Source of the DNA: Acidobacteriota bacterium
Lineage (GTDB): Bacteria; Acidobacteriota; UBA6911
DNA length: 64,000 nucleotides
Reading direction: 5' to 3'
NCBI GenBank assembly: GCA_016933615.1
Contig: JAFGAO010000068.1
Coordinates: 840 to 64,839, forward strand
Positions 1-41,304 of this stretch are shown in pieces (the first letter of the stretch is position 1; each line of letters begins with the position of its first letter). Made by a program: the position numbers and the translations under genes. A model generated the notes under the pieces. The model saw only the letters and a program-made list of their open reading frames with translations, was not told the DNA's origin and searched no databases.

Positions 1-791
1 ACTGGCGCTTGATTTTCTATTTTGGCGCCGCACTGACCGTTCTATTCATTCCTCTATTTCATTTCGTGATACCGGAATCCGTCCATTGGCTGGTGCGCAA
101 ACAACCGGACGGCGCGCTGGACAAAGTCAACACTATACTGAAACGTATCGGACATAATCCTGTTGCGGCGCTGCCGGAGATAAGCCCCGAAGCACGAAAA
201 AAATCCATTGGGGATCTTTTTGCACCGGGTCTGCTCCGGATAACAATCATAATAGCGGTTGCCTATTTTCTGCAGATTTTTACCTATTATTTCATACTGA
301 AATGGGTACCTAAGGTGGTCGTCAATATGGGCTTTACCTCCCCCGAAGGAGCAAGCATGTTGATGTACGCAAATATCGGGGGAGCCCTGGGCGGCATGTG
401 CCTGGGTCTTTTAAGCCGGCGACTTGAAGTAAAGAAGCTGACGATTGCGGTCCTGGTGCTTTCAGGTGTTTTCATTACTATACTGGGCCTGACACCGGCC
501 GACCTGACTTACTTTGCATTTCTAGTCGCGCTTTGCGGGTTTTTCGGGAATGCGGGCATACTGGGACTTTACGCCCTGTTTCCGGCTGCTTTCCCGACGC
601 ATGTGAGGGCATCCGGCACCGGTTTCGTGCTCAGCGTAGGCCGCTTGGGCGCAGGCTTGTCGCCGCCTTTTGTAGGTTATTTGTTCGACCGCGGATTAAT
701 CTTGCCCCGCGTGACTCTGCTTATAAGCATTGGTACATTCGTCGGAGCCGGAGTTCTATCCTTCCTTAAACTCAGGAAAACGGTGGAATGA
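1..791 (+). CDS. MFS transporter, C-terminal ~260 aa (5' end outside window)
   Basis: The frame of track ORF 9..791 stays open back to nt 3. TM-rich sequence with loop 'ESVHWLVRKQPDGALDKV', typical of aromatic-acid/H+ symporter-type MFS proteins. Confidence 0.75.
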   Translation, partial: WRLIFYFGAALTVLFIPLFHFVIPESVHWLVRKQPDGALDKVNTILKRIGHNPVAALPEISPEARKKSIGDLFAPGLLRITIIIAVAYFLQIFTYYFILKWVPKVVVNMGFTSPEGASMLMYANIGGALGGMCLGLLSRRLEVKKLTIAVLVLSGVFITILGLTPADLTYFAFLVALCGFFGNAGILGLYALFPAAFPTHVRASGTGFVLSVGRLGAGLSPPFVGYLFDRGLILPRVTLLISIGTFVGAGVLSFLKLRKTVE

Positions 792-869
792 TTCTTTAAA
801 AGCGCCCAATTTCCGAATCAAGTTCGAAGCATAGGAATGGGTGGTTCATGCAGTTTAGCGCAATGTCCA

Positions 870-1850
870 CTATATTGGATGCCGGACGGGTTGAAAACGC
901 ATTCTGTGAACGGCTTGTGTGTACTCATTCATCATTTTTTGTATGACTGCTGCCGCAGGTATTATTTCCCGTATCAATCCGGCGGAGGATCCGGCATAGG
1001 CATCCCCGTTTTCCATGTCTCCCAAAAGCTGTCCCTTACGGGTCCTGCCGCGGCCGATAAATCCCTCAATTCGTTCCTTGCCGGCACCGGAACGTTCCAT
1101 TTCGGCGAGATCCTCTAAAAACCGGGACTTGAGACTTCGAACCGGGATGCTGCCCCGTCTCGTTATCAGGGTTGCATTATCTCCGGAATCCATAATGGCC
1201 TTCTTATAGGCAGAATGGGCCATGCATTCTTCGGAGGCGACAAAGCGTGTGCCCAACTGCACGCCCGAGGCTCCGAGGGCGAAAGCGGCAGCCATTCCCC
1301 GCCCGTCGGCGATGCCTCCGGCGGCTATAACCGGGATTTTAACCGCATCGGCCACCAGTGGAAGCAGCGACAATAGGGGGATTTCTTCGCGCGCGATGCG
1401 CCCCGCCGCCTCGCAACCTTCTGCAACGACAATATCGACACCGCAGGATTCCGCCAGCCGGGCCTGAGACACTGAACCGATCACATGCAGGACCTGCATG
1501 CCGGCGCAATGAAACAACTCTGTATATGTGCCCGGATCTCCTGCGGCGGTAATGACGATAGCCGCTTCTTCCCGGAGCAGCACATCCACAAGCCGCCCGC
1601 TTTCCGGAAGATCCAGAAGGATATTTACCGCAAACGGCTTATCCGTCCGTCGCCGAATCCGCTGAATCTGGAAGCGAAGGTTTCGGGCGGGATCGCCGTT
1701 TCGAGTCATCCCGGCATGAGGGCTGAGAGTGCCGAGTGCGCCCGCTTCGGAGACGGCGGCGGCAAGTCCCGCCTCCGCAAGCCGGAACATCCCTCCCTGA
1801 ATGACGGGGTACTCGATCCCTAAAAGCCTGCAGACGCGGTTCTTTTCCAT
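870..1850 (-). CDS. NPD-type FMN oxidoreductase (nitronate monooxygenase / FabK-like)
   Basis: 326 aa. N-terminal 'LLGIEYPVIQGGM' and 'VIAAGGIADGRG' TIM-barrel FMN-binding signatures of the 2-nitropropane dioxygenase family. Confidence 0.8.
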   Translation of the reverse strand: MEKNRVCRLLGIEYPVIQGGMFRLAEAGLAAAVSEAGALGTLSPHAGMTRNGDPARNLRFQIQRIRRRTDKPFAVNILLDLPESGRLVDVLLREEAAIVITAAGDPGTYTELFHCAGMQVLHVIGSVSQARLAESCGVDIVVAEGCEAAGRIAREEIPLLSLLPLVADAVKIPVIAAGGIADGRGMAAAFALGASGVQLGTRFVASEECMAHSAYKKAIMDSGDNATLITRRGSIPVRSLKSRFLEDLAEMERSGAGKERIEGFIGRGRTRKGQLLGDMENGDAYAGSSAGLIREIIPAAAVIQKMMNEYTQAVHRMRFQPVRHPI

Positions 1851-2276: not shown

Positions 2277-2431
2277 GGTTCCCCCTTCCATTCAGTTGAA
2301 TCCAAAACGCCTTTTACCCGGGCCGCGGTCCCACCTTACGGGACCGGCAGATCCCTCGTTCTCCGTCTCTCGTTCAGGATTCTTTACGGAGGTTAAAAAC
2401 AGACAATCTATCCATGCAATCCAATTATTAT

Positions 2432-3106: not shown

Positions 3107-3172
3107 ATTCCGCCTCCTGTACTTTAGCGGGAAAAATTTATCACCACTGCGGATTCAACGGTGCGCCGCGGA

Positions 3173-5938: not shown

Positions 5939-7786
5939 ATGGCAGAAAAACCAGGCGGGTATCTGGGGCGCGTTCTGCGCGTAAATCTCGGCAGTGAGAA
6001 AATAACGATAGAACCGCTGGACCACTCCATTCTCCGCAAGTTTGTCGGCGGCGCGGGTCTGGGAGCCAGGTATCTTTACGAAGAAGTGCCCCCCTCCGTC
6101 GAGTGGTCCGACCCGGATAACAGGCTGGCGTTCTTTTCCGGACCTTTCGGCGGCACCCGGTATGCGGGATCGGGGATGATATCCGTCGTCAGCAAGGGAC
6201 CGATGACCCATATGGCCGGTTCCTCGCAGGCCAACGGCTTTTTCGGCACTTTCCTGAAATTTTCCGGTTTTGACGGCGTGATCATTCAGGGGGCGGCCAG
6301 CGACTGGAAATACCTGCGGATTCATGACGGAACGGCCGAACTGCGCGATGCGCGGGACCTTCTCGGCCGGGACACCCTGGAAACCGAAAACATCATCCGC
6401 AGTAGACTCGACCGTCAGTGCAGCGTTTACGGCATCGGGCCGGCGGGGGAAAATCTTGTGCGCTATGCGGCCATATTCGGCGATCACGGGCACGTAGCGG
6501 CCCACAACGGACTTGGCGCCGTGATGGGATCTAAAAAATTGAAGGCGGTCGCGGCCGAGCGGGGGCACGAGAAAATCGAGGTCGCCGATCCGGAGCGGTA
6601 TGCCGCGGCGGTAAAGGAATTTGCCCGGAAATTCCACAAAATGCAGCATCCACTGTTCCAGTACGGAACCGCCGATCTCGTCGGACTGGCAAAAAAACTC
6701 GGCTGGCTTCCGGTGAAGAATTACACCACGAGCGAATTTCCCGAATTCGAAAAATTCACCGGGGAATCCATCCGCAGGAATTTCAAGACCAAATCCACAC
6801 CCTGCTGGGCATGCCGCAAGGGGCACACCTGCTCGATTCAGATAGAAGAAGGCCCTTTCGCCGGATTCGAGGGGGAGGAACCGGACTACGAGGGCGTGGC
6901 CGCCATGGGTTCGCTGATCGGCCAGACCGATCCGGCAACGACCATTTACCTGTGCAACATGGTGGACCGCCTTGGCATGGACATCAACGAAAGCGGGTAC
7001 GTCATCGCCTGGCTCATGGAATGCTACGAAAAGGGATATCTCAAGAAATCCGACCTGGACGGCGTCGAAATGACATGGGGAAACGGCGGCGCGGTTATGG
7101 AGATGCTGAAAAAGATCGCCTACCGCGATGGATGCGGCGACCTGCTGGCCGAAGGCGTCAAGCGTGCATCGGAAAAGATCGGGGGAGAGGCCGCCGACTG
7201 CGCGGTCTATACGCTGAAGGGGGCTTCCCCGCGTACGCACGATCACCGCGCCAACTGGCCGGAACTCATCGATACCTGCCTGTCCAACACCGGGACCATC
7301 GAAGTGACCGGCGGCGCGCCCAAACCGGAGGAACTGGGCCTGGAGCCGGTGAAAAATCCGGCCGATCCCGTTGAAGTGTCCGGCATGAACGCCAAACTCA
7401 ACGGCAAGGGGCAGTTTCTGGACAGCCTGCCGCTTTGCCGCTTCTGCATGCAGGATTTTAAATCCCCGATCGAGGCGCTGAACATCATCACGGGATGGGA
7501 TATGGATATTGCGGAAGCGATCGATGCCGGGCGCCGCGTGGTCAACCAGTTCCGGGTCTTCAATTTCCGGCATGGCCTGACCAAGGAAATGGAGGCCCCC
7601 TCCGTCCGTTACGGCTCTACTCCGTCGGACGGTCCGGCCGAAGGCAGAGCCATCATGCCCCAGTGGAACGCCTTGCGCCGGAACTATTACGAGCAGATGG
7701 GCTGGGATCCCGAAACCGGAAAGCCGCTTCCCGAAACGCTGAAAAAACTCGGCCTGCCGGACCTGATCCCGGGGCTATCCTCATGA
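5939..7786 (+). CDS. aor: aldehyde:ferredoxin oxidoreductase family (tungstopterin/[4Fe-4S])
   Basis: 615 aa. N-terminal 'GYLGRVLRVNLGSEKI', 'GGAGLGARYLY', a Cys cluster 'CWACRKGHTC' and C-terminal 'DSLPLCRFC' are typical of the AOR family. Confidence 0.9.
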   Translation: MAEKPGGYLGRVLRVNLGSEKITIEPLDHSILRKFVGGAGLGARYLYEEVPPSVEWSDPDNRLAFFSGPFGGTRYAGSGMISVVSKGPMTHMAGSSQANGFFGTFLKFSGFDGVIIQGAASDWKYLRIHDGTAELRDARDLLGRDTLETENIIRSRLDRQCSVYGIGPAGENLVRYAAIFGDHGHVAAHNGLGAVMGSKKLKAVAAERGHEKIEVADPERYAAAVKEFARKFHKMQHPLFQYGTADLVGLAKKLGWLPVKNYTTSEFPEFEKFTGESIRRNFKTKSTPCWACRKGHTCSIQIEEGPFAGFEGEEPDYEGVAAMGSLIGQTDPATTIYLCNMVDRLGMDINESGYVIAWLMECYEKGYLKKSDLDGVEMTWGNGGAVMEMLKKIAYRDGCGDLLAEGVKRASEKIGGEAADCAVYTLKGASPRTHDHRANWPELIDTCLSNTGTIEVTGGAPKPEELGLEPVKNPADPVEVSGMNAKLNGKGQFLDSLPLCRFCMQDFKSPIEALNIITGWDMDIAEAIDAGRRVVNQFRVFNFRHGLTKEMEAPSVRYGSTPSDGPAEGRAIMPQWNALRRNYYEQMGWDPETGKPLPETLKKLGLPDLIPGLSS

Positions 7787-8965: not shown

Positions 8966-8976
8966 CGCCGCGGGCA

Positions 8977-10982: not shown

Positions 10983-12266
10983 CTATGGACATCGATCCGG
11001 GACGACGGTGGCGGGTTGGAGCCGCTTTGCCTGGTTGCGCCGTATTCTGTAGAGGACGACGACCATGACCGCGACAACGGAGGTCAATCCCATCAACATT
11101 TCCAGAACCGGAAGATAACTTCCATAGATTCTTTCCATCTCCGCAATGACCGATATCCCCAGCCCTCCACAGGCCACATCCACGGCGGTCAGGACCCCCA
11201 GGATTTTCCCATAGGAATGACCGGCAAAAAACTCGGCAATAACCAGCTGGATCAGCGTAAACGTTCCGCCGAAGCCGAGGCCGAAAACGGCGGCATAGGC
11301 GTACAGATACATCAGATTGCCGGTGCTTGAAAGCCTGAGGAAAAAGAGTCCGGTCAGCAGCAGGATCACAACGAGAATCATGATGGATATTTTGTCCAAA
11401 CGGTCGCTCATGTGACCGAACAGCAGCTTCCCGGCTATGGCGAACCAGAAAATGGCGCTGAAGATTAAAGAGTAGGTACTCCTGGGAAGCCCCAGCTCCT
11501 CGCTCATGAAAAAGGATTGATTGTTGTAGATGCCGTTCATGGTGAACCACAGCGCACCGGTGGCCAGCGCCAGGATATAAAACGCCGGATTGCGCAGGGC
11601 TTCTTTCATCGTGGGGCCCTCAATCTTATTTTTCTGCGAGGACCGCTTTGCCTCCGCCGCTTCGTCCCCGTCCGGCGGCAGCCCCTTGTCTTCCGGGCGG
11701 CTTCGAACAAGGAATATATAGGGGAGCAGCATCATGACCGCGCACAGGATGAGAAAAACGGTTATCGCGTCCCGCCATCCGCCGTTTTCCATAACGTAAT
11801 TGAAGACAAGAGGGAAAACGGCCCCGCCTATGCTGGTGCCCGTTAAGGTAATGCCGACGGCAATGCCCCGGTAGCGCCGGAACCAGCGCGTCACGACCAG
11901 AATGGTCGGCACCTGGCCGGCGCAGACCTGGGAGAAAGCCAGCACGATGTAAATGACGGTCAGATGCGTCAGAGTTTCCATCGAGCGGTAGGCTAAAAGG
12001 CCCAGCACGGTTATGCAGCCCCCGGCAATCATGAAGATTCTGGCGGAGTAGCGGTCGAACAGCGAACTGACGAAGGGAGTGATGGACGCGCCCGTGAGGA
12101 AAAAAATGGTCGCGGCGTACGAGATGCTCTGTTTGGACCAGCCGAACTCGGCTGTCAGCTCGGGATAAAAAAGCGGCAGCGTGTAGACCTGGACGCCGAC
12201 GAGGGCGGTATAGCTGGCAAAGATGCCTGCCAGCACCCACCAGCCGTAAAAGATTCTGTCGCGCAA
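10983..12266 (-). CDS. MFS transporter (oxalate/formate- or monocarboxylate-like)
   Basis: 12-TM-like pattern. Start reassigned to TTG 12266, 7 nt after AAGAGGAG. The track ORF's extension to 12527 is non-membrane, Arg/Pro-rich sequence. Confidence 0.8.
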   Translation of the reverse strand: MRDRIFYGWWVLAGIFASYTALVGVQVYTLPLFYPELTAEFGWSKQSISYAATIFFLTGASITPFVSSLFDRYSARIFMIAGGCITVLGLLAYRSMETLTHLTVIYIVLAFSQVCAGQVPTILVVTRWFRRYRGIAVGITLTGTSIGGAVFPLVFNYVMENGGWRDAITVFLILCAVMMLLPYIFLVRSRPEDKGLPPDGDEAAEAKRSSQKNKIEGPTMKEALRNPAFYILALATGALWFTMNGIYNNQSFFMSEELGLPRSTYSLIFSAIFWFAIAGKLLFGHMSDRLDKISIMILVVILLLTGLFFLRLSSTGNLMYLYAYAAVFGLGFGGTFTLIQLVIAEFFAGHSYGKILGVLTAVDVACGGLGISVIAEMERIYGSYLPVLEMLMGLTSVVAVMVVVLYRIRRNQAKRLQPATVVPDRCP

Positions 12267-12853
12267 GGTAAGGCTCCTCTTAGGAAATTGAATTCGTAAA
12301 TTTGGGCGTTTCCAGCATACACCAGGGCAGTCAAAATTCAGTCCCAAATAAACGGCCACGGCAGGTGCCGGGAAATTGGCCTGTGCCCGGAGGCAGGGCG
12401 GTTTCCGCACCCGCAACGGGAAATAGCCTTTAAAGATTCCAATAAACGGGCGCATGAATCCCTCCAACGCCGGGATCCCCATGCTTTGGCACAATCCTGT
12501 AATCCGGCCCAATAGTGCAGGACGCATGCCTTACATACAATATCTATCTCATTCCTTTTCAATAATTTAAACCATACATGCCCCGGAATAAAATTCTATG
12601 AAGAACCAACCCCTTAATGATAGAATCACACCCGCAGAATTCCCTGGATCTGACTGTGATTCTCCGTTCGACCGGAACCTGCCGGTGAATTCTCAGCGAT
12701 AATTAGGAGCGGGTATCCATTGAAGAATCCGCTACAGGGCGGGCGATCAAGCTATCGCGGGCTTCCCTTTTTTCTTATGTGCAGGAACAGGATGCCCTTC
12801 AGGATCGGGTTATTCCGGTATCATGATCGGATAACGGCAAACGGAGCGAAACG

Positions 12854-14299
12854 ATGAGTGTACGTGCGTCGGTAGCAGATGTCGTGGTAATCGGCTCGGG
12901 GGCCTCAGGCTTGACAGCCGCCCTGACTGCGGCTGAAGGCGGAGCGACTGTAAGCGTTTTCGAAAAGCAGCGCGCGCCTGGCGGGACGTCGATCAATTTT
13001 GAAGGCATCTTTGCAGTTGAAAGCGACATGCAGCGGGCACAATTTATTGACTACAGCCGGGACGACGCCTTCAAAAGCATCATGGAATACAACCACTGGA
13101 AGGCAAACCCCCGCCTGGTTCGCAATATCGTCAATGAATCCGCCGAAACCATATCGTGGCTCGAGCGACAGGGTGTCGAATTTGCCGGCGTCTCCATCAA
13201 CATGCCGAAGTCGCCCCGTACCTACCACGTCGTAGCCGGCACCGGGCAGGCCGTTGTACAAGCGCTTGTTTCCAATGCAAAAGGGAAAGGCGTCGATCTG
13301 CGGATGGGAACCCCGGTCACGAAAATCCTCAAGGAAGGCGGCCGCATCACGGGCGTCATGGCTGAAGGCGGCACGGACAACATCCGGGTGAACGCCAAAG
13401 CCGTTGTGATCGCCAGCGGCGGATTCGCGAACAACCGGAAGTGGATCAAGAAGTATACGGGGTTCGAACTCGAGAAAAACCTGTTTCCCGTCGGCAACAC
13501 GGGCAAATTCGGCGACGGCATTCGCATGGCCTGGGAAGTGGGAGCCGCCCAAGAGGGCATTGGTGTCGTGGAACTGTACCGAGCCGGTCCGCTTACGACC
13601 GAAATCGGCGGCCAGGTGGAATGGCCCACGGTCCAGCCGGATCTCTGGGTCGATCCGCGCGGCGAAAGATTCTGCGATGAATCAATCGCGTTCTACGACA
13701 CCTCCGTCGGAAACATGAATGCGAAGTTCAAGGAAGGATACACCTACAGCCTTTTCGATTCATCGATCCTCGAGCGCCTGAAACAGGAAGGACTCGATAA
13801 AAACGTCAATGTGAGGACGCCTCCCGGTTCCAGGCTTACCAATTTCGACAAGGAACTCGAGATCCTTTTCAAAAAGGGGAACACGGATGTCTTTGTCGCC
13901 GATTCCGTCGAGGAACTGGCCGTCAAAATCAAGGTGGATCCGGGGGTACTGAAATCCACTGTAGATGAATACAACGGGTTCTGCGAGAGAAAGCATGATG
14001 ATCTTTTTGCCAAGGATCCCAGGTATCTGAGGCCTTTGAAGGGCCCCAAGTTTTACGCCGTGAAAGCCCATACCGTCTTCCTCGGCACCATGGGCGGAAT
14101 CAGGATCAATCAAAAAACCGAGGTCATCGACAAAAAGGATAAGGTCATCCCGGGCCTCTACGCCGCCGGATTCGATGCAGGCGGCATGTACGGCGACAGC
14201 TATCACATTTCAGTTGCTTCCGGCTCCTCGTCCGGATTCGCAGTCAATTCGGGACGCATCGCGGGCAAGAGCTTATTGAACTATATTAAAACCGTTTAA
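12854..14299 (+). CDS. FAD-dependent oxidoreductase (fumarate reductase / 3-ketosteroid dehydrogenase-like flavoprotein)
   Basis: 481 aa. Dinucleotide fold 'DVVVIGSGASGLTAALTAAEGG...EKQRAPGGTS' and C-terminal 'GLYAAGFDAGGMYG'. Confidence 0.85.
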   Translation: MSVRASVADVVVIGSGASGLTAALTAAEGGATVSVFEKQRAPGGTSINFEGIFAVESDMQRAQFIDYSRDDAFKSIMEYNHWKANPRLVRNIVNESAETISWLERQGVEFAGVSINMPKSPRTYHVVAGTGQAVVQALVSNAKGKGVDLRMGTPVTKILKEGGRITGVMAEGGTDNIRVNAKAVVIASGGFANNRKWIKKYTGFELEKNLFPVGNTGKFGDGIRMAWEVGAAQEGIGVVELYRAGPLTTEIGGQVEWPTVQPDLWVDPRGERFCDESIAFYDTSVGNMNAKFKEGYTYSLFDSSILERLKQEGLDKNVNVRTPPGSRLTNFDKELEILFKKGNTDVFVADSVEELAVKIKVDPGVLKSTVDEYNGFCERKHDDLFAKDPRYLRPLKGPKFYAVKAHTVFLGTMGGIRINQKTEVIDKKDKVIPGLYAAGFDAGGMYGDSYHISVASGSSSGFAVNSGRIAGKSLLNYIKTV

Positions 14300-24689: not shown

Positions 24690-24755
24690 AGCAGTAAGCA
24701 GTTGGCAGTAATCTGATTCGGATTCGGGCTCAGATGAAATAGGGTATAAGTGACG

Positions 24756-24780
24756 GTAGGGGCGAACCTTGTGTTCGCCC
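24756..24780 (+). repeat. REP-like palindromic element, single copy
   Basis: GTAGGGGCGAACCTTGTGTTCGCCC, in the same orientation as the 8977 array. Confidence 0.9.
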
Positions 24781-24830
24781 TGGTAACGAAAAGTTGGCAG
24801 GAGGCGGGAGAAAGAAGCCAGGAGTCAGAA

Positions 24831-26972: not shown

Positions 26973-27052
26973 CCTTGGAGTGCGGCAGCTTGCTGCCGCC
27001 TTCGTTATATAGATTCCAAATCAAAGCGGCAGCTTGCTGCCGCACTCCAAGG
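26973..27052. repeat. composite inverted repeat (27-nt arms)
   Basis: CCTTGGAGTGCGGCAGCTTGCTGCCGC (26973-26999) and GCGGCAGCTTGCTGCCGCACTCCAAGG (27026-27052). Each arm also carries its own GCGGCAGC/GCTGCCGC mini-palindrome. The spacer is 26 nt. Confidence 0.85.
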
Positions 27053-27088
27053 ACTCTTCTTCGCATTACTATTTCAGGAGATGAAGGC

Positions 27089-28462
27089 ATGGATGCTGCA
27101 GTGGAATTTGCCCGGAATTTCGCGAATACGAAATACGAGGATCTTTCTTCCGAAGTCGTCGACGCGACGAAGAAGGAGATCCTGGATCTCATGGGTGTCG
27201 CCCTGGGCGGCATTTCCCAGCCGGGGGCTACGCACGTGCGCAGGCTCATGGAGGCATGGGGAGGCAAGGAAGAAAGCAGCATCATCGGCGGCAGCCTGAA
27301 GGTTCCGGCGCCGAACGCGGCCCAGGCGAACGCCACCATGGCGCACGCCCTGGATTTCGACGACGTGCACGAAGCGGCAGTCATGCACCCCGGGATAGCG
27401 GCCATCCCCGTTGCATTGGCCGTAGCGGAAGCAGAAGGAAATTTCAGCGGCAGGGAACTGATCACGGCTACGGCCCTGGGCGTCGACATGATGTGCCGTC
27501 TGGCCTTGGCGACCACCCCCGGTAAAAATCCGATCGACCTTGGATGGCACCTTACTTCCCTGTTCGGCTTTGTCGGATCTGCCGCTACGGCGGCCAGGAT
27601 TATGGGACTGCCCGAAGAAAAAATAGTCGATGCCATCGGTATCGGCTACCACCAGTGTGCGGGAAACGGCCAGTGCGTCAAAGACGGGGCGTTGACCAAG
27701 AGGCTCGGACCGGGATTCGCCATAAAAGGCGGCATCACCGCGGCTCTATTGGCGAAAATGGGCGTGACGGGATCGACGAACAGCTTTGAAGGCGAGTGGG
27801 GCCTCTACCAACAGTATATGGACGGGGATTACAGCCGGGAAATTCTCCTCGAGGACCTGGGCAAACGCTTCGAAGGTGTCCATGTCGCCATCAAGCCCTA
27901 TCCCTGCTGCCGGGGCATTCATCCCGCAATCGATGCCGGACTCGCACTGGCTATCGAAGACGGTGTCCGCAGCGAACACATCAAGGAAATTGTATTGACC
28001 GTGACGGAGGCGCACCTTTCCCTGCTCTGTACGCCTGAAGACGCTAAAAAATCACCCAGGAGCCCCGTAGACGCCCAGTTCAGCATTCCCTGGGGCGTCG
28101 CTTCGGCCATTGTGGGGAAACGGGTCGGTCTGGACAATTTCACGGAAAAAGCCATTACGAACAGCGATGTCCTGGAGGTCACACAAAAGATGCGGCTGGA
28201 GGTGGACGACGCGCTGAGCAAGCCCGGACCGGACCCGACGCGGATTAAGATTATTACGCATGACGGGAATGTGTTTGAGAAAGTGGTGCACACTCCCCTC
28301 GGCAGTCTTGATCGCCCCATGTCGTACGATGACTGCGCAAACAAATTCAGGGATTGCGCAAAAAGCCTCGATCCCGATCGTGTGGAACAACTCATAGAAC
28401 TGGTCGGAACACTGGAGCAGGTTGACGATATACGGGCAATAATTCAACTTCTAACAACATGA
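27089..28462 (+). CDS. MmgE/PrpD family protein (2-methylcitrate dehydratase-like)
   Basis: 457 aa from ATG 27089, 8 nt after GGAG. 'AVEFARNFANTKYEDLSSEVVDATKKEILD', 'HALDFDD', 'HPG' and 'KPYPCCRGIH' are typical PrpD-family blocks. Confidence 0.85.
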   Translation: MDAAVEFARNFANTKYEDLSSEVVDATKKEILDLMGVALGGISQPGATHVRRLMEAWGGKEESSIIGGSLKVPAPNAAQANATMAHALDFDDVHEAAVMHPGIAAIPVALAVAEAEGNFSGRELITATALGVDMMCRLALATTPGKNPIDLGWHLTSLFGFVGSAATAARIMGLPEEKIVDAIGIGYHQCAGNGQCVKDGALTKRLGPGFAIKGGITAALLAKMGVTGSTNSFEGEWGLYQQYMDGDYSREILLEDLGKRFEGVHVAIKPYPCCRGIHPAIDAGLALAIEDGVRSEHIKEIVLTVTEAHLSLLCTPEDAKKSPRSPVDAQFSIPWGVASAIVGKRVGLDNFTEKAITNSDVLEVTQKMRLEVDDALSKPGPDPTRIKIITHDGNVFEKVVHTPLGSLDRPMSYDDCANKFRDCAKSLDPDRVEQLIELVGTLEQVDDIRAIIQLLTT

Positions 28463-30697: not shown

Positions 30698-30710
30698 TTA
30701 AAATCCGGAC

Positions 30711-31194
30711 CTACAGAATATCCTGTAGCCCCAGCTCCTCCAGCCTTTCCTTTCGGAATTTGCCGGTCTCGAAGTCGAAGCCCATGGCCTCGAGGTATTG
30801 GCGCTTGAGCCCCTCGAATTCGAGGGTCACGCTCCTGGTCGGCCCCGCCGTGAGCGGCGGGTTCCCGCGGGCCCTTTCCGGCAGAGTGAAATCGGAAAGC
30901 CGGAATCCTTCCCTGAAATTGAAAAGATGCAGCATGGTGCCGATGCGCTGCCCCGTCAGTTTTAAATTCTCTATGTCCAGGTCCCAGCCCTTGATCGCGC
31001 GCATCAGCTCGATCCAGCGGAAATTCAGGCCGTCGGCCGCGAATATGCACACGCCGGAGCAGTTCATGAGTTGCTGCCAGCCCGACATGACGGCCTGGTA
31101 CTTTCCCTTCCCTTCGGGATTGTACCTGGCGGACCGTCCCCTCGGTCAAATTCACAAACAGAATTCTGCCGATATATCCGAATCCAGCTTTCAT
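30711..31194 (-). pseudogene. aldehyde:ferredoxin oxidoreductase remnant (large internal deletion plus frameshift)
   Basis: ATG 31194 (AAGGAG 6 nt upstream) encodes the AOR N-terminus 'MKAGFGYIGRILFVNLTEGTV'. After ~25 codons the homology continues in another frame with the AOR C-terminus ('YNPEGKGKYQAVMSGWQQLMNCSGVCIF...GWDLDIENL...YLEAMGFDFETGKF'). About 450 codons are missing relative to the intact AOR at 5939. Confidence 0.75.
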
Positions 31195-34152: not shown

Positions 34153-34614
34153 ATGCCGGATTCAACAGACAAACCCAAAGCCGTGTTCTGTACCAACACT
34201 CAATTGCCGCTCGGCGTCCACGATTTTGAAGCCGACGGCGACGGGCCCGCGAAGGCGCACGCACCGGATCCCCTTCACAGGGTCATCTACATGGACGACC
34301 GCGTCGTCCCGGGCTCCTTTTACGTCGAAGCCGTGTGGGTAAAAGGTTCCGTGCCCAAGGTTCACCCCGTGCACCGGCACGATCACGACGAGATCCTCGG
34401 CTTCGTGGGAAGCGATATGGAGAACCCGGACGATCTCGGGGCGGAAATCGATATCGTCATCGACGGCAAAAAGACGACGATCACCAAAACGTGCTTTATC
34501 CACGTGCCTGCCGGTGTGGAGCACGGCGGGCTCTGTTTCAGGAAAATCGACAGGCCGGTATTTCAGATCGCCATGTTGAGGCAGGATATATTTGAAAGCG
34601 TCCCCCCCACGTAG
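34153..34614 (+). CDS. cupin-fold protein, function unknown
   Basis: 153 aa. Cupin motif 1 'HRHDHDEILGFVG' (HxHxxxE) and motif 2 'HVPAGVEHG' (PxGxxH). AAGGAG lies 6 nt upstream of the ATG. Confidence 0.6.
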   Translation: MPDSTDKPKAVFCTNTQLPLGVHDFEADGDGPAKAHAPDPLHRVIYMDDRVVPGSFYVEAVWVKGSVPKVHPVHRHDHDEILGFVGSDMENPDDLGAEIDIVIDGKKTTITKTCFIHVPAGVEHGGLCFRKIDRPVFQIAMLRQDIFESVPPT

Positions 34615-34645: not shown

Positions 34646-35581
34646 ATGACAGGCGCCGGGAAAAAGGCTGCGCCGCCAAGGGCGGTTATTACAAACATCC
34701 AGGGCTTTTCCATCCATGACGGGCCGGGAATACGCACGGTGGTTTTTTTCAAGGGGTGCCCGCTCGCCTGCCGCTGGTGTGCCAACCCGGAATGCCTGTC
34801 CCCCGAGCCGCAGATCGGGTTCATTGAGACTCTCTGCACGGATTGCGGGGAGTGCTCCCAAATCTGCGCCGAGGGCGCCATCCGCGGCGGCAAAGGCGTT
34901 CACCGGATCGACTATTCTCGCTGCACCTCCTGCGGCGATTGCGTCGACGGCTGCGGCTACGGGGCGCTCGTGCGCTACGGCGAATCCATGACGGTTCCCG
35001 ACGTCTGGGATATCGTCCGGCGCGACAAGATGTTTTACGACAGTTCGGGCGGGGGCGTCACGGTCTCGGGGGGGGAGCCTTTGCTCCGGGCGGGATTCGT
35101 CCGGGAGCTGTTTGAGCTGTGCAGACAGGAGCGGATCGATACCTGCATCGAGACGTGCGGATTGGCCGCCCGGGATGCGCTTGTTGAGGTTATTCCCGTC
35201 ACGGATCACTTCCTGTTCGATCTGAAGCTCATCGATCCAAAGCTGCACAAAACATACACCGGACAATCCAGCGGCATCATTCTCGAAAATGCCGCATTTC
35301 TCATGGAGCGGGGCGTCGACATCGTATTCCGGCAGCCGCTGGTTCCCGCAATAACCGATACTGTTGAAAATATGGAAGCGACCGCGGCCTTTCTCAAAGG
35401 ATCCGGCAAAAAGGACGTAAGCCTGGAGTTGATGCCCTACCACCGGATGGGGCGGGGCAAATACCGGGCGCTCGATATGCGGTATCTCATGGACGGGACC
35501 GAAGCAGCGGGGAACGAAAGAGCGGAGGCCGTCAAAAAAGCCTACATCGATCTCGGCGTACGTTGTACGATTTCAAGGTAA
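34646..35581 (+). CDS. glycyl-radical enzyme activating enzyme (radical SAM, with two ferredoxin-like cluster motifs)
   Basis: 'GFSIHDGPGIRTVVFFKGCPLACRWCANPE' (CX3CX2C), 'CTDCGECSQIC' and 'CTSCGDCVDGC', plus the SAM motif 'SGGEPLL'. Start taken at ATG 34646. Confidence 0.9.
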   Translation: MTGAGKKAAPPRAVITNIQGFSIHDGPGIRTVVFFKGCPLACRWCANPECLSPEPQIGFIETLCTDCGECSQICAEGAIRGGKGVHRIDYSRCTSCGDCVDGCGYGALVRYGESMTVPDVWDIVRRDKMFYDSSGGGVTVSGGEPLLRAGFVRELFELCRQERIDTCIETCGLAARDALVEVIPVTDHFLFDLKLIDPKLHKTYTGQSSGIILENAAFLMERGVDIVFRQPLVPAITDTVENMEATAAFLKGSGKKDVSLELMPYHRMGRGKYRALDMRYLMDGTEAAGNERAEAVKKAYIDLGVRCTISR

Positions 35582-35601: not shown

Positions 35602-38046
35602 ATGGTCGAAGTGAACATGCAGCTTCTTGACAGGATCGACGACCTGAAACTCGGCGAACGGGTCCTGCAGTGGAAAAAGGCCGTGAAAGAGGCCGGGTGG
35701 AAACTTTTCGCAGAGAGGGAGAAATGGACCGTCCAGTCCTGGCGCGAAACCGAAGGGCTCGACATCCAGCTGCGGCGCGCCCTCCTATTCAAGAAGGTGG
35801 TGGAGAATGTCGAAATCCGGATTCAGGACTACGACAGGATCGCGGGCCGCCTGACGCCCGCCGTTATCGGATGCATGACCTCGATCGACGTCTGCGGCGA
35901 CTACATCCCGGGCATCTGGCAGGACTCCGACAAGCTGAGGATCACGATGGACGCCGACGTCGGCATGGATCCCGAAAGCATTGAAATTCTTCGCGCCGGC
36001 GCGCGGCTGTTTCGCGGGAAAACGGCGCCCGAGATGACCTACAAGGCCTGGGAGGCGGCCGACGGCGGCTGGATCAGGGATGCCGAAGCGGCCAAGCTCA
36101 AGGATCCGACCCTGGACACCGGCATATTCGGACAGGTCACTTCCGTACTGATGTGGAAGAAGATTTTGGAGAAAGGCCTGAAAGGCTTCATCCGGGAGGC
36201 CCGGGAGCATATCGACGCGTTTGTCGCAAACCGGGAAAGCGACATCGACCGGCTTTACTTCTGGAAATCCTCGATCATCGCATGCGAAGCGGTCATCGAT
36301 CACGCCCGCCGATACGCCGCCGCGGCCAGGGAAATGGCTGAAAAGGAAACGTGGCCGGAACGCAGGGCCGAGCTGCTCGAAATGGCGGCCGCCTGCGGCC
36401 ATGTGCCCGAGAATCCGGCCCGGACCTTTCACGAGGCGCTGCAATCGATGGCCATCGTGGGCGTGTGCAAGAACTACGAGCACCCGATGCACAACAATCC
36501 CCAGTGGGGGCGAGGCGACCAGTACCTGTATCCCTACTTCATCCGGGACATCGACGAGGGAACAATCACGCTCGAAAAGGCTTCGGACCTGCTCGCGGAG
36601 CTCATCGGCCGCTGGGGAACCCAAACCTTCGTCTCCTCCGAGAGCTCCATGGAATCGCACCAGATCAATTTCGGAATCAACAACGCCATGATCGGCGGTG
36701 TGAATGCGGCGGGCGAGGACGGTTCCAACGAATTGAGCTACCTGTTCCTGCACGTCGTCGGGCTGCTGCAGCTGTCGTCCCCGACCCTGGGCCTGCGCTG
36801 GAACGGCAAAACGCCCTCCTGGATTATGAACAAGGCCATCCGCACGAACATGGCCACCAAGGGCGGCATTCCCCTTTTCGAAAACGACGAAGTCGTCATC
36901 GAGCATTTCCTCAAGGACGGAATCCCGATCGAGGAGGCCGCGGAGTGGTGCGGGCTGGGCTGCGTGTATCCCTGCCTTCCCTCAAGGGCGGAGCATTACG
37001 GCGCCGAGGGCATCGCCGCCTGCAATCTGGCCGCGATGCTTCATCTGGTGCTGCACAACGGCGCAGACGTAAACGACAAACAAACGGGGCTGCAGACGGG
37101 CGACCCGAGAGAGTTCAAGAGCTTCGAAGATCTCTACGGCGCCCTGATGCGGCAGCACAGGTTCATCACGCACCGTATTTTCTGGCTTGCGTCCATCGCC
37201 CGCAGGGAACAGCCCAAGCACATGAGGCTCCCGTTTTTGTCGACCGTGGGCGTTCCGAGCTGCATGGAACTGGGGCAGGATCTCCTGATTCCGGACCCGG
37301 AATCCTGCATGTTCGGCATTTCCGACAGGGCCATCATCGACGTCGCCGATTCTCTCATGGCCTTGAAGAAGCTGGTGTTTGATGAAAAGAAGCTGACCAT
37401 GGGGGAACTTCTCGAGGCGATCGACGGCAACTTCGAAGGCCGGGAGGGGGAACGGATCCGGCGCCTGTGCCTGGCGCAACCCAAGTTCGGCAACGATATC
37501 GACGAGGTGGACCTGCTGGCCAAAAGAATCGGCGAAGACTCCGAGCGCATCATCCGCAGCTACGACAACTCCCCGTTCCGCAATTACATGATCGCGCGGG
37601 AAGGGCTCGCCTGGCACTATTTCGGCGGGCTGGGCGTGGGTGCCCTGCCCAACGGGAGAAAGGCGTTCGAGCCGCTCAACGACGGCTCCATCTCCCCGAT
37701 GAGAGGCGTGGACAGGGCGGGGCCGACCGCCGTGCTGCGTTCGGCGCTCAAGGCCGGGTTCAGGGAATCCCACGCCTCGGTGCTGAACCAGAAGTTCTCC
37801 GCGTCCATCCTGGGGAGCCGAGAAAGCATCGACAAGCTCGCGGCCTACACCAACGCCTTCATGGCAAACGGCGGCTCCCACATCCAGTACAACATGGTGG
37901 ACACGAACGAACTGCGGGACGCGAAAATCCACCCCGAAAACCATCGCGACCTGATCGTCCGCATCGGGGGTTTCAGCGCCTATTTCACGCAGCTTTCCGC
38001 CGACATCCAGGACGACGTCATCAACCGGAGCGAGCACAACCTTTAG
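35602..38046 (+). CDS. glycyl-radical enzyme, PFL2/dehydratase-like clade, unknown reaction
   Basis: Glycyl radical motif 'DLIVRIGGFSAYF' (Gly codon 37969-37971). Cys loop 'WCGLGCVYPC' (Cys codon 36961-36963). 'GPTAVLRS' and 'KFGNDIDEVD' blocks. Start ATG 35602, 6 nt after GGAG; the track start at 35563 overlaps the activase. Confidence 0.9.
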   Translation: MVEVNMQLLDRIDDLKLGERVLQWKKAVKEAGWKLFAEREKWTVQSWRETEGLDIQLRRALLFKKVVENVEIRIQDYDRIAGRLTPAVIGCMTSIDVCGDYIPGIWQDSDKLRITMDADVGMDPESIEILRAGARLFRGKTAPEMTYKAWEAADGGWIRDAEAAKLKDPTLDTGIFGQVTSVLMWKKILEKGLKGFIREAREHIDAFVANRESDIDRLYFWKSSIIACEAVIDHARRYAAAAREMAEKETWPERRAELLEMAAACGHVPENPARTFHEALQSMAIVGVCKNYEHPMHNNPQWGRGDQYLYPYFIRDIDEGTITLEKASDLLAELIGRWGTQTFVSSESSMESHQINFGINNAMIGGVNAAGEDGSNELSYLFLHVVGLLQLSSPTLGLRWNGKTPSWIMNKAIRTNMATKGGIPLFENDEVVIEHFLKDGIPIEEAAEWCGLGCVYPCLPSRAEHYGAEGIAACNLAAMLHLVLHNGADVNDKQTGLQTGDPREFKSFEDLYGALMRQHRFITHRIFWLASIARREQPKHMRLPFLSTVGVPSCMELGQDLLIPDPESCMFGISDRAIIDVADSLMALKKLVFDEKKLTMGELLEAIDGNFEGREGERIRRLCLAQPKFGNDIDEVDLLAKRIGEDSERIIRSYDNSPFRNYMIAREGLAWHYFGGLGVGALPNGRKAFEPLNDGSISPMRGVDRAGPTAVLRSALKAGFRESHASVLNQKFSASILGSRESIDKLAAYTNAFMANGGSHIQYNMVDTNELRDAKIHPENHRDLIVRIGGFSAYFTQLSADIQDDVINRSEHNL

Positions 38047-38873: not shown

Positions 38874-38883
38874 CTCCATATTT

Positions 38884-41304
38884 ATGCGCAGCAGTCCTGA
38901 CAGTGACAGGGGAGGATACGGAAGCATCCTCAAAGGCACCCTGGTACTGGATCTCGCGGACGAAAAGGGCAGCTACTGTTCGAGACTCCTTGCGGACCTG
39001 GGAGCCGAGGTCATTAAAATTGAACCGCCCGGGGGAGACCCATCCAGAAATCTGGGGCCTTTCTATCGTAAAGAAGCGGGCGGCGAGCCTGTCAGTCTTT
39101 CTTTCTTCTACAACAACCTGAACAAGAAAAGCATCTGCCTGGACCTCCGGGCGGCGGAGGGAAGACGTTTCTTCAAAAGGCTGGCGCAAAGGGCCGACGT
39201 TCTGGTGGACACCTTCCCGCCGGGCTACTTAGACAGTCTGAAGCTTGGCTCCGAATCGCTCCGCGGCGAAAATCCCGGCTTAATTCACCTTTCGATCACG
39301 GCTTTCGGGCACAGCGGACCGAAATCGGCCTGCCGCGCATCCGACAGCGCCGTTTCCGCCTATGGGGGCCAGACATACGTTTGCAGCAACGGGTCGGGCA
39401 AACCCTCGAAGTTGTTCGGCATGCAATCCTGGTACGCGGCATCGCTCTTCGGCGCCGTCGCCGTCATGCTCCGGCTGCGGCAGCGGAAACGAACCGGGCG
39501 CGGGATTTTCATCGACCTCTCCGCCCAGGAAGCCGTCGTCTCCACACTGGACCATGTGCTGATCGATTATTTTTCAGACCGTCGAATCGCCCACAGGCGG
39601 GATGCATCGACTCGTGACAGCCGCTTCCAGGTTGTTCCCTGCAAAGACGGTTTCCTCCTCCTTACGATCCTGGAAACCTGGGATACGCTGATCGAACTTA
39701 TCGATTCGGAAAACGGAGCCAGGAATTTCCCGGATCCGAGGTGGAGAGATCCGGATTACCGCCTGAAACACTTCGGCGATATGCTCAAAGTTATAAAAGA
39801 GTGGGCCTCGCGCCACACAAAACGGGAGCTGTTCGAAATCGGCCAGGCAATGCGCTTCCCCTGGGCTCCCGTCGCTTCAGCCCGGGAAGTTCTTGAAAGC
39901 CCGCAGCTGCGCTCCCGCGGTTTCTTTGTCGAAAGCCGTGTTTCGGGGGAAAAAGCGATCCTTCCCGGCACCCCCTACAGGTTCAATTCCTGGAAACCCA
40001 CGACTCCAGTGCCCGCCCCACGCCCTGGGGAACACAGGACCGAGGTACTGAAAAAACTGGACACCCATATAAAAATAAATAATTTAAAACATGAAGTATT
40101 TGATTATAAATATTCATATTTAAATAATAATATTCTAAAAGGAATCAGGGTGCTGGATCTGTCCAGGATGCTTTCCGGGCCGTACGCCACCCGGATCCTG
40201 GCTGATTTCGGAGCGGAGGTGATCAAGGTCCAGACCGGGAAAACCGCCCGGGGTGCCGAGCGCGACGACAGCGCCTATTTCAGCGCGTGGAACCGGAACA
40301 AGCGCAGCATCCGGCTGGACCTGGATTCAGAGGAGGCAGGAGAGGTTTTTCTGAAGCTGGTTGCTGGAAGCGACATTCTCGTGGAAAACTATTCCCCCCG
40401 TGTCATGGCCAATTGGGGATTGCCCCCGGATCGAATGAAAGACGCGAACCCTTCCCTGATTATGCTGAGCATCTCGGCGATGGGGCAAACGGGCCCCTGG
40501 AAAGACTTCGTCGGATACGCCCCTACATTCCATGCCCTTTCGGGATTGATGTCCGCATCGTCGTCTGTACCCGGCTCTCCCGCAACCATCGGACATGCGT
40601 TCGGGGACGTAATGGCCGGACTCTATGGCGCCTTTTCTCTGATGGCGGCTCTGGAATTCCGGGATAACACAGGACAGGGCCTGCATATCGATCTTTCCGG
40701 ATACGAAGCCCTGTGTTCCCTGCTCGGCCCGGCCCTGATGCATAACTCGCTGGCCCGTGATGCGGGCGAACGGAGCCGATGGTGTGAAGAATACTGCGAT
40801 ACGGTACCGGACGGGTGCTATCCGTGCCGGGGAACCGATCGCTGGTGCACCCTGACGGTAAAAAACGATACCGAGTGGCGGACATTCTGCAGCGTTCTCG
40901 GCCGGCCGGAACTGGAATCGGACCGCTTCGCCACCCCGGAGGGAAGGAGAAAACACGAACAGGCGCTCGATGACATTATTAAGAACTGGACGGAGGCCCG
41001 TTCTGCGGAATCCGCGGTCGGGGCTATTCAGAAGGCAGGGCTTGCGGCCGGTATCGTTCAGGACGCAAGGGAGATTTCAAGGGATAGGCATTTAACCGCC
41101 CGCAAATTTTTCATTTCCCTGAAACACCCGCAACTCGGCGATACGGCCGCCGACAGATCCGCCCTGTGGCCGTGGGACTGCGCCACGGACGGATGGCGGG
41201 CCGCGCCGCTTCAGGGAGAGGCCGACCGCGATATATTCGTAAAGCTTCTCGGAATGCCGGAAGAAACCTTCAGGGATTTCCTGAGGCGGGGGGTCATCGG
41301 ATAA
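38884..41304 (+). CDS. tandem fusion of two family-III (CaiB/BaiF) CoA-transferase domains
   Basis: 806 aa. Domain 1: 'LVLDLADEKGSYCSRLLADLGAEVIKIEPPGGDP...GEHRTEVLKKL'. AT-rich linker at 40066-40143. Domain 2: 'IRVLDLSRMLSGPYATRILADFGAEVIKVQ...LRRGVIG'. Confidence 0.85.
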   Translation: MRSSPDSDRGGYGSILKGTLVLDLADEKGSYCSRLLADLGAEVIKIEPPGGDPSRNLGPFYRKEAGGEPVSLSFFYNNLNKKSICLDLRAAEGRRFFKRLAQRADVLVDTFPPGYLDSLKLGSESLRGENPGLIHLSITAFGHSGPKSACRASDSAVSAYGGQTYVCSNGSGKPSKLFGMQSWYAASLFGAVAVMLRLRQRKRTGRGIFIDLSAQEAVVSTLDHVLIDYFSDRRIAHRRDASTRDSRFQVVPCKDGFLLLTILETWDTLIELIDSENGARNFPDPRWRDPDYRLKHFGDMLKVIKEWASRHTKRELFEIGQAMRFPWAPVASAREVLESPQLRSRGFFVESRVSGEKAILPGTPYRFNSWKPTTPVPAPRPGEHRTEVLKKLDTHIKINNLKHEVFDYKYSYLNNNILKGIRVLDLSRMLSGPYATRILADFGAEVIKVQTGKTARGAERDDSAYFSAWNRNKRSIRLDLDSEEAGEVFLKLVAGSDILVENYSPRVMANWGLPPDRMKDANPSLIMLSISAMGQTGPWKDFVGYAPTFHALSGLMSASSSVPGSPATIGHAFGDVMAGLYGAFSLMAALEFRDNTGQGLHIDLSGYEALCSLLGPALMHNSLARDAGERSRWCEEYCDTVPDGCYPCRGTDRWCTLTVKNDTEWRTFCSVLGRPELESDRFATPEGRRKHEQALDDIIKNWTEARSAESAVGAIQKAGLAAGIVQDAREISRDRHLTARKFFISLKHPQLGDTAADRSALWPWDCATDGWRAAPLQGEADRDIFVKLLGMPEETFRDFLRRGVIG

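Follow-up and report, generated by a model that had tools for sequence, protein, structure and literature searches.

Does a dense run of anaerobic catabolic genes on an acidobacterial contig encode one pathway or several? The island that raises this question occupies positions 1-41304 of a 64,000-nt stretch of Acidobacteriota DNA (assembly GCA_016933615.1, contig JAFGAO010000068.1), which is referred to as the window and to which all positions refer. A preliminary description, made from the sequence of the window, had treated the island as a single unit of about 35 genes. Comparative genomics instead divides it into four modules with separate histories (M1 to M4), and the island is probably a lineage-specific mosaic of anaerobic catabolic modules rather than one co-inherited pathway. 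Its core is the M2 operon, which combines a B12-type mutase with several CoA-transferases. Carbon turnover in peat, wetlands and sediments involves abundant Acidobacteriota, whose anaerobic catabolism has mostly been deduced from annotation, and the division into modules tells which of the genes to express together.

Gene content of the island

Long, non-overlapping open reading frames (ORFs) of the window were translated and scanned against Pfam, for assignment at the family level, and against NCBIfam, whose equivalog cut-offs served as the threshold for assignment of function. The island contains 34 genes. All families listed in the preliminary description were recovered at their places, and its picture of a region dense in anaerobic catabolic genes stands; this density is not a chance feature. 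Two entries had to be corrected: one further 'gene' is a pseudogene of an aldehyde:ferredoxin oxidoreductase (AOR) at 30711-31194, and a 153-aa ORF upstream of a radical enzyme activase encodes a conserved cupin. Between 12.9 and 41.3 kb the genes lie on the plus strand with short gaps, the pseudogene (AOR2) being on the minus strand, and the right edge at 41304 abuts a truncated gene of glycoside hydrolase family 10 (GH10).

The family-III CoA-transferases comprise three single proteins and one double protein, amounting to five domains, while family I is represented by one A/B pair and one fused GctAB-like protein. No match to AMP-binding ligase, acyl-CoA dehydrogenase, thiolase, helix-turn-helix regulator or transposase families was found among the window ORFs scanned, in agreement with the absences listed earlier, and CoA transfer is the only activation chemistry encoded. 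An Rfam scan of the window gave no match, and hence no cobalamin riboswitch. Promoter and terminator counts between 28 and 42 kb were close to the expectation from shuffled sequence.

A conserved mutase and CoA-transferase operon

M2 is a 24.5-kb block (5.9-30.3 kb), of which 12.9-30.3 kb is the conserved operon part. A scan with its GlmE-like protein, taking one genome per species, yielded 20 Acidobacteriota loci, which were compared with all window proteins by tblastn (L-numbers denote relative loci or contigs). In 20 of 20 species the genes CoAT1_fus-CoAT3_a-GlmE-GlmS-CoAT3_b-OYE1-CoAT3_c-ECH3-PrpD-SDR1 occur in the same order, at 62-95% amino acid identity. Because the stretch from CoAT1_fus to SDR1 holds no ligase, acyl-CoA dehydrogenase or thiolase, reliance on CoA transfer is a conserved property, and the earlier proposal that activation proceeds solely by this route holds inside the operon of the 20 relatives as well. 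The literature searched contained no experimentally defined orthologous cluster, consistent with the preliminary view of a cluster of unassigned substrate, and no paper on the operon, on a GlmE-like enzyme with the substitution described below, or on the clade of the glycyl radical enzyme (GRE) of the island. The genes of M2 are as follows.

5939..7786, plus strand: tungsten-type AOR (AFOR_N, AFOR_C)
7952-8965, about 9141-9650 and 9628-10938, plus strand: TRAP transporter proteins DctP, DctQ and DctM (Pfam DctP/DctQ/DctM)
10983..12527, minus strand: major facilitator superfamily (MFS) carboxylate transporter (MFS_1; weak NCBIfam matches to lactate and oxalate/formate transporters; same place in L002)
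12854..14299, plus strand: soluble FAD enoate reductase/dehydrogenase of the fumarate-reductase/VprA/TcuA family, FADb2 (FAD_binding_2; VprA 360 bits, cut-off 600)
14580..16061, plus strand: NAD(P) aldehyde dehydrogenase, ALDH (Aldedh 538 bits; orthologues 87-93% identical)
16117..17838, plus strand: fused GctA-GctB-like protein of the family-I CoA-transferase fold, CoAT1_fus (CoA_trans in the N-terminal half only; orthologues 65-79%)
17942..19174, plus strand: family-III CoA-transferase CoAT3_a (CoA_transf_3 370 bits; below all NCBIfam equivalog cut-offs)
19260-20726 and 20835-21257, plus strand: B12 mutase, GlmE-like and GlmS-like subunits (Met_asp_mut_E 409 bits; B12-binding)
21266..22507, plus strand: family-III CoA-transferase CoAT3_b (CoA_transf_3 251 bits)
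22590..24689, plus strand: OYE/FadH-type Fe-S flavoenzyme OYE1 (Oxidored_FMN and Pyr_redox_2)
24750..26057, plus strand: family-III CoA-transferase CoAT3_c (CoA_transf_3 333 bits)
26076..26954, plus strand: crotonase ECH3 (ECH_1; orthologues 87-95% identical)
26975..28462, plus strand: PrpD/MmgE-fold protein (MmgE_PrpD_N and MmgE_PrpD_C)
28565-29410 and 29492-30313, plus strand: short-chain dehydrogenases/reductases SDR1 and SDR2 (adh_short)

SDR1 always closes the operon, and SDR2 follows it in some relatives. Upstream, the 20 species carry a variable set of TRAP, FADb2, SDRx (an additional SDR) and ALDH genes: in the majority of the longer loci ALDH orthologues come before the core operon, FADb2 orthologues are present in L002, L005, L006, L035 and L036, and TRAP genes lie directly upstream in L008, L009, L011, L020 and L101. 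AOR and TRAP genes adjoin the operon only in some relatives. In a metagenome scan with the window AOR, its orthologues (84%) were found next to SDR2, a second AOR, NuoF/NuoG-like genes, TRAP genes and the FADb2-SDRx-ALDH set, and never next to M1 genes; judged by this context, the AOR belongs with M2. The SDR2-SDR1-AOR grouping recurs in distant lineages. Among the distant contigs, L058, L059 and L063 show the order GlmS-MutL-cupin-cupin-OYE1-AOR-SDR-SDR-AOR (MutL in L058 and L063), and L094 the order GlmS-CoAT3-CoAT3-ECH3-PrpD-AOR.

Two of the 20 species (L006, 93-1649; L018, 4186-5682) carry a gene of the tannase/feruloyl-esterase family (320-347 bits) immediately before the operon, a neighbour that hints at an ester-derived aromatic or acid substrate. 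L006 also carries a PNPOx-like flavoprotein gene upstream of the operon. In one species an IS21-type element (IstA/IstB; L016, 2753-4994) separates ALDH from a C-N hydrolase gene that precedes CoAT1_fus. Downstream of the operon-like set of L058 (12213-19992) are genes for a DMSO-reductase-family molybdopterin oxidoreductase, a URO-D-family protein, an OYE-type enzyme and a nitroreductase.

Two ends of a probable older locus

M1 comprises genes at both ends of the island and the pseudogene that follows M2.

9..791, plus strand: MFS transporter, 5' end cut by the window edge (Pfam MFS_1/Sugar_tr; 75% amino acid identity to the MFS protein of L109)
870..1850, minus strand: NMO/FabK-like FMN enoyl reductase (Pfam NMO 210 bits; NCBIfam FabK 294 bits, cut-off 453; 61% to L109)
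1978-2118 and 2157-2291, minus strand: two tandem desulforedoxins of 44-46 aa (CxxCG...CCG motifs; a single Desulfoferrod_N gene at this place in L109)
2432-3106 (B) and 3173-3922 (A), minus strand: family-I 3-oxoacid CoA-transferase (Pfam CoA_trans; matches to SCOT/AtoDA-type PDB structures; not in L109)
4042-4830 and 4827 to about 5582 (ORF to 5807), minus strand: crotonases ECH1 and ECH2 (ECH_1; 80% and 56% to the L109 pair)
30711..31194, minus strand: AOR2 pseudogene with a 1.4-kb internal deletion (62% amino acid identity to the C-terminus of L109 AOR2; blastn)
38091-38873 and 38884-41304, plus strand: SDR3 and the fused double family-III CoA-transferase CoAT3_fus (Pfam; 579 bits for two domains)
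41317..41742, minus strand, edge marker: GH10 pseudogene, C-terminal 141 aa only (Glyco_hydro_10 profile positions 203-309 of 311)

The loci L109 and L110 were reached through a homologue of the double CoA-transferase (54% identical). Their gene order is MFS-NMO-Dx-ECH-ECH-AOR2-NuoG-NuoF, facing CoAT3_fus-rSAM-GH10-amidohydrolase-Gate-SNF-SDF (Dx, desulforedoxin; rSAM, radical SAM). The genes that L109 shares with the two ends of the island (1-5.8 kb and 38.1-41.3 kb) lie about 6 kb apart there. L109 is without the second desulforedoxin, both family-I CoA-transferase genes and SDR3; further right it keeps the order of the window, except that the GATase gene is missing. By this collinearity, the two ends are evidently parts of one formerly contiguous locus.

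The remnants of this locus show clean losses. The minus-strand ORF at 30711-31088 corresponds to the C-terminus of L109 AOR2, for which NCBIfam gives generic AOR matches only, and in blastn window positions 30709-31125 match L109 3998-4414 while 31125-31197 match L109 5814-5886, with exactly 1.4 kb lost between the two segments. L107, from the nearest relative (the same metagenome-assembled genome, MAG, as the M2 locus L002), is collinear with the window over the SDR3-CoAT3_fus pair (95% and 69% amino acid identity) and continues with a radical-SAM gene and a full-length GH10 gene, the latter encoding 379 aa in both L107 and L109. Measured against L107, the 500 bp of the window at 41305-41804 bear two distinct, clean deletions, one of which removed the entire radical-SAM gene and the other the first two-thirds (5' side) of GH10. 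The 5' end of another flavoenzyme gene of the island, OYE2, is 93% identical in L107, but inverted and about 4 kb upstream of SDR3, and L107 has a 1135-aa gene where the window has the SnoaL-cupin-activase-GRE set. On its outer flanks the region follows the gene order of L107 and L109, with MFS-NMO to the left and GH10-GATase-amidohydrolase-Gate-SNF to the right.

From these comparisons we infer that M1 was split, is decaying and now encloses M2 (5.9-30.3 kb) and M3 plus M4 (31.5-38.0 kb). Decay would have included internal deletions in AOR2 and GH10 and the loss of the radical-SAM and NuoF/G-like genes. Losses elsewhere, the opposite polarity, would be the less parsimonious reading, since all other genomes have M2 and M4 in other contexts.

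An 11-nt sequence, GGGCGAACACA, is present in 13 copies at five sites of the window (8991-9046, 24770-24780, 30611-30683, 57613-57655 and 63490-63500), four of them intergenic, where 0.03 copies are expected by chance. Three sites are tandem arrays with periods of 45, 11 and 16 nt, and an array of six copies lies exactly at the junction between SDR2 and the AOR2 pseudogene. The element resembles a family of REP-like repeats. At 24770 a lone copy falls inside the annotated 5' end of CoAT3_c, whose true start is probably downstream of 24780.

A glycyl radical enzyme with its own distribution

M3 and M4 fill the interval between the AOR2 pseudogene and SDR3.

31462-33546 and 33600-33992, plus strand, M3: OYE/FadH-type Fe-S flavoenzyme OYE2 and SnoaL_2 protein (Pfam; the latter 37 bits, with no NCBIfam match)
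34153..34614, plus strand, M4: 153-aa metal-type cupin, GRE partner (no Pfam match; AlphaFold/Foldseek fold)
34646..35581 (ORF start 34592), plus strand, M4: GRE-activating radical-SAM enzyme (TIGR02494 320 bits, cut-off 174)
35602..38046, plus strand, M4: GRE of 814 aa (PFL-like and Gly_radical)

The GRE has orthologues in more than 100 clusters of 75-88% identity, all of about 814 aa; its start is most likely at 35602, giving this length as in all orthologues, and not at 35563. In the complete 6.9-Mb Acidobacteriota chromosome OY761556.1, the GRE gene (4.68 Mb) and the M2 operon (1.78 Mb) are 2.9 Mb apart, and the neighbours of the GRE are a cupin, an SDR, the activase and otherwise unrelated genes. 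The MAG CAZPHK01 carries them on separate contigs. No GRE gene lies within 10 kb of any of the 20 M2 loci, and M2 genes are missing from six of six GRE loci. The synteny search suggested in the preliminary description had a divided outcome: the M2 operon is conserved, but the GRE stands beside the CoA-transferase operon in no other genome examined. Judged by this distribution, M4 is independent of M2.

What does accompany the GRE is the small protein upstream of its activase. The 88%- and 85%-identical GREs share only the 153-aa protein and the activase as neighbours, and a 76%-identical GRE stands alone. The cupin gene is next to activase-GRE in L022, L023 and L024 and on the opposite strand in L001. 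The protein forms a narrow family (181 matches at 69-96% identity) with His/His/Glu/His cupin motifs, and its AlphaFold model, of moderate confidence (pLDDT 64), resembles in Foldseek, at the level of the fold, small metal-dependent epimerases and isomerases such as MarH and KdgF.

One pathway, a mis-assembly or a mosaic

Several observations weigh against a mosaic. The single-strand run from 12.9 to 41.3 kb, unbroken and with short gaps, would allow co-transcription. In L063 (47-4274) the 3' end of a different GRE gene, an activase gene, a GlmS-like gene and MutL lie directly upstream of OYE1-AOR-SDR-SDR-AOR; this GRE is 42% identical to that of the window over the C-terminal 244 residues, and no GlmE gene is visible in the 12 kb of L063 examined. 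A functional link to a GRE is therefore possible in some lineages. The M2 copy of the window is without SDRx and without a 303-aa gene, both of which are present in L002. Whether genes were inserted here or lost elsewhere is judged from a handful of relatives, the source contig is part of a metagenome bin with the junctions read from the assembly alone, and the substrate specificities are guesses because the enzymes score below the equivalog cut-offs (the GlmS and activase models pass).

The first two of these observations would also suit an integrated pathway, in which all 34 genes serve a single alicyclic or branched carboxylate and were collected on one island in this lineage on account of their joint action, with the GRE catalysing an early radical step and the CoA-transferases and OYE-type enzymes acting downstream. 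The recurrence of the same enzyme families across M1, M2 and M3 points the same way, as do cupin paralogues (37-41% identity) inside operons of distant lineages and after SDR1 in L005. We nevertheless regard such a pathway as unlikely. In no other genome examined is the cupin-activase-GRE trio linked to M2, and the complete chromosome places 2.9 Mb between them; the nearest relative carries a different gene at the GRE position; the M1 genes at the junctions are pseudogenes or missing; and the GRE orthologues keep only the cupin and the activase as partners.

An artefact of assembly, in which contigs of related strains were mis-joined into a mosaic order, is more improbable still. The source is a MAG contig, and repeats such as GGGCGAACACA, found at the SDR2/AOR2 junction and at other intergenic sites, can seed mis-joins. 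GC content, however, is even across all module junctions, the AOR2 remnant is collinear with L109 at both ends around a single clean internal deletion, and the outer flanks follow the order of L107 and L109, as expected for insertions into a real locus. A mosaic of four modules remains the reading that we prefer, and the functions discussed below are considered module by module.

A mutase with an active-site substitution

The GlmE-like protein aligns with GlmE of Clostridium cochlearium (PDB 1CB7_B) over residues 5-488 (338 bits). The arginine claw (Arg66, Arg100, Arg149) and Tyr181, which bind the two carboxylates of the substrate in glutamate mutase, align identically, whereas Glu171, which contacts the substrate amino group there, is replaced by alanine (Ala173 of the window protein), the surrounding SNEGGG reading AVAACP. 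Alanine at this position is invariant in the orthologues of all 20 Acidobacteriota species. A pocket of this kind would bind two carboxylates as glutamate mutase does and be hydrophobic where the amino group would sit. The GlmS-like subunit contains the DxHxxG cobalamin motif ('DAHVIG').

Could M2 still be an ordinary glutamate fermentation operon of the methylaspartate pathway, with a true glutamate mutase? The GlmS-like subunit passes its NCBIfam model (196 bits, cut-off 110), and the GlmE-like subunit, at 365 bits, is just under the TIGR01503 cut-off of 390. The two-subunit architecture, the TIM-barrel homology over the full length and the DxHxxG motif are those of C. cochlearium GlmES (1CB7/1CCW). 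Unlike that enzyme, the window mutase is without Glu171 and is embedded among CoA-transferases, an enoyl-CoA reductase and a crotonase, partners that the free-acid methylaspartate pathway does not use; methylaspartate ammonia-lyase, mesaconase and the MutL reactivase were not found among the window ORFs scanned. Given the substitution and the missing partner genes, we rejected canonical glutamate fermentation, which is highly improbable.

The substitution has company in the wider family. In a quick alignment of sequences, the canonical R-R-R-E-Y signature was present in only 31 of the roughly 115 full-length GlmE-like cluster representatives; this validates the alignment column for Glu171 and means that many GlmE-like mutases are probably not glutamate mutases. 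The remaining representatives differ at position 171, many of them in the arginine claw too, and forms of about 640 aa with an extra N-terminal region are common. Among 1.84 billion representatives, only two full-length 50%-identity clusters are 47-48% identical to the window protein. The nearest relative outside the Acidobacteriota, a fused GlmE-GlmS of Oscillospiraceae (48%), was considered as a clue and set aside as uninformative, its context being unrelated.

As a chemical precedent for a reaction of the glutamate-mutase type on a substrate that has no amino group, 2-methyleneglutarate mutase comes closest, the likeness being one of chemistry. In the nicotinate fermentation of Eubacterium barkeri, this enzyme carries out the B12-dependent skeleton rearrangement of a non-amino C6 dicarboxylate. 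Aldehyde and alcohol groups are interconverted before the mutase step, and isomerase and hydratase steps follow it. That pathway runs on free acids throughout and uses a single-chain mutase, a PrpF-type isomerase and an aconitase-type hydratase; unlike it, the window has no nicotinate dehydrogenase or enamidase. If the M2 mutase acts on a non-amino dicarboxylate, it would extend a very short list of B12 carbon-skeleton mutases.

A putative route for unsaturated or branched dicarboxylates

The other M2 enzymes have recognisable, mostly distant relatives. By its domains and similarity the intact AOR is a tungsten-type AOR proper (310 bits to Pyrococcus furiosus AOR, 1AOR; 214 to FOR), and a BamB-like benzoyl-CoA reductase was rejected on a BamB score of 162 bits. 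The family-III CoA-transferases have full-length CoA_transf_3 domains, and their likeness to succinate-glutarate, mesaconate and formyl/oxalyl types falls below the cut-offs of all substrate-specific equivalogs. CoAT1_fus has distant PDB matches to glutaconate CoA-transferase, the decarboxylase AibA(B) and the ring hydrolase IpdA(B). FADb2 matches TcuA weakly. OYE1 is closest in the PDB to 2-naphthoyl-CoA reductase (NCR; 249 bits), then to FadH, with which it shares an FMN-binding OYE domain, an Fe-S linker and an FAD/NAD(P) domain; unlike these enzymes at the equivalog level, OYE1 reaches the cut-off of no model, the mycofactocin-OYE, bilirubin-reductase and BaiCD models score similarly, and other naphthalene genes are absent. 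ECH3 is below all NCBIfam cut-offs, including that of the HCHL-type hydratase/lyase (135 against 276 bits). The PrpD-fold protein matches IRG1/CAD structures with 114-138 bits and a PrpD structure with 25 bits, and reaches 32-49 bits with PrpD-type 2-methylcitrate dehydratase models, whose cut-offs are 575-950. IDS epimerase is also among its best solved relatives; both PrpD-fold domains are shared with it and with IRG1/CAD (Bacillus and mammalian), a likeness that, at these low scores, is one of fold.

In M1, the family-I A/B pair (2432-3922) matches SCOT/AtoDA-type structures with 155 and 182 bits and keeps the catalytic glutamate ('QSEIG' aligned with 'QSENG'). That the pair, the NMO protein and the crotonases make up a steroid ring-cleaving IpdAB/IpdC/EchA20 set was rejected on this basis, IpdA giving only 38-39 bits.

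Gene content, module boundaries, conservation and active-site substitutions are observed features of these loci; the order of the reactions and the direction of the pathway given here for M2 are our proposal. The TRAP or MFS carrier would import a carboxylate. AOR, ALDH and the SDRs would oxidise aldehyde and alcohol groups to give a di- or tricarboxylate, and the four CoA-transferase-fold proteins would move CoA on, off and between its carboxyls, drawing on a donor from central metabolism and not on ATP. The NCR/FadH-like flavoenzyme may reduce an enoyl- or dienoyl-CoA, and the adenosylcobalamin mutase may rearrange the free dicarboxylate between linear and branched skeletons. The crotonase, the SDRs and the IRG1/PrpD-like protein could then hydrate and oxidise the branched or linear product and either decarboxylate or isomerise it. 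The scheme would include a logic like that of methacrylyl-CoA, in which hydration and removal of CoA are followed by oxidation of the alcohol via the aldehyde to the acid; here it would act on a dicarboxylate with a 2-methylene group or other unsaturation.

A di- or tricarboxylate scheme is proposed because of the nearest characterised relatives (the CoA-transferases, GctAB, IRG1/CAD, TcuA and NCR/FadH) and the tannase neighbours. By the same comparisons, the likeliest class of substrate would be C5-C7 di- or tricarboxylates that are branched or unsaturated and resemble itaconate, aconitate or 2-methyleneglutarate; they may be released from plant esters.

Least probable of all is a bile-acid or steroid (bai-like) or arylsuccinate (bbs-like) pathway: the likeness to both operons drawn in the preliminary description persists at the family level (OYE-type flavoenzymes, SDR, SnoaL/NTF2 protein and MFS for bai; family-III CoA-transferases, adjacent SDR pair and crotonase for bbs), but the BaiCD matches of 306-334 bits are far below the cut-off of 825 and under the mycofactocin-OYE and bilirubin-reductase scores, no BaiB-type ligase, BbsG-type acyl-CoA dehydrogenase or BbsAB-type thiolase is present among the window ORFs scanned, the GRE has its best matches among dehydratase/lyase models and is not fumarate-adding, and the mutase, AOR, ALDH and IRG1-like protein are without counterpart in bbs or bai.

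A Cys-Val-Tyr loop in the glycyl radical enzyme

The GRE has all features of its superfamily: a PFL-like barrel (PF02901, 430 bits), a glycine-radical motif ('RIGGFSAYF'; PF01228, 85 bits), a cysteine on the Cys loop and an adjacent radical-SAM activase. The loop, with its single cysteine, reads GCVYP, against GCVEP in GDH and 9RCO, GCVET in HypD and GCTEA in IseG, and C-V-Y is invariant in 14 of 14 orthologues. According to a 2026 review (PMC13450708), C-x-E is kept in eliminases and isomerases, and a pair of cysteines is confined to PFL and TdcE. The best matches of the GRE are to 1,2-eliminases and isomerases (GDH, HypD, CutC, IslA, HpsG and YbiW/PflD; 310-380 bits), with which it shares the PFL-like fold, the glycine motif and the TIGR02494-type activase; unlike them, it has the C-V-Y loop and a cupin as its partner rather than dehydrogenase or microcompartment genes. 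It falls below every NCBIfam cut-off, with HpsG as the best characterised model (444 against 1000 bits) and 453 against 678 bits for the PFL2-3 subfamily.

A fumarate-adding (bss/ass/mas) GRE was considered and rejected. TutD (252 bits) and MasD (300 bits) rank below the dehydratase/lyase matches, the activase gives 192 bits with the BssD model (cut-off 496), and the small beta and gamma subunits of X-succinate synthases are absent, the cupin being the sole small ORF near the GRE. A limonene GRE (PMC12583861) was likewise dismissed as a relative: it is a fumarate-adding enzyme of Syntrophobacteraceae and unrelated.

Public annotations, including those of JGI, label this GRE family 'formate C-acetyltransferase' or 'pyruvate formate-lyase' (PFL). 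The GRE scores 79.5 bits with the PFL model TIGR01255, whose cut-off is 994, and its one cysteine is followed by Val-Tyr. In the UBA6911 genome paper, a 'formate C-acetyltransferase' and its activase were read as evidence of formate production from pyruvate; identity with the present gene is not confirmed. For this GRE family, formate fermentation is a doubtful conclusion because of the single Cys-loop cysteine and the low score.

Taken together, we tentatively suggest, with clearly less confidence than the mosaic itself, that the operon may encode an undescribed B12 skeleton mutase for non-amino dicarboxylates within an ATP-independent pathway that uses only CoA-transferases and is widespread in wetland and peat Acidobacteriota, and that the cupin-associated C-V-Y GRE may catalyse a reaction outside the eliminase, isomerase, decarboxylase, formate-lyase and fumarate-addition classes.

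Other genes of the window

Beyond the island, two adjacent paralogous genes (47968-51954 and 52167-56075) encode proteins of about 1300 aa with TPR repeats at the same positions (residues roughly 700-900 and 1150-1220). The N-terminal parts of both proteins are long and have no Pfam match.

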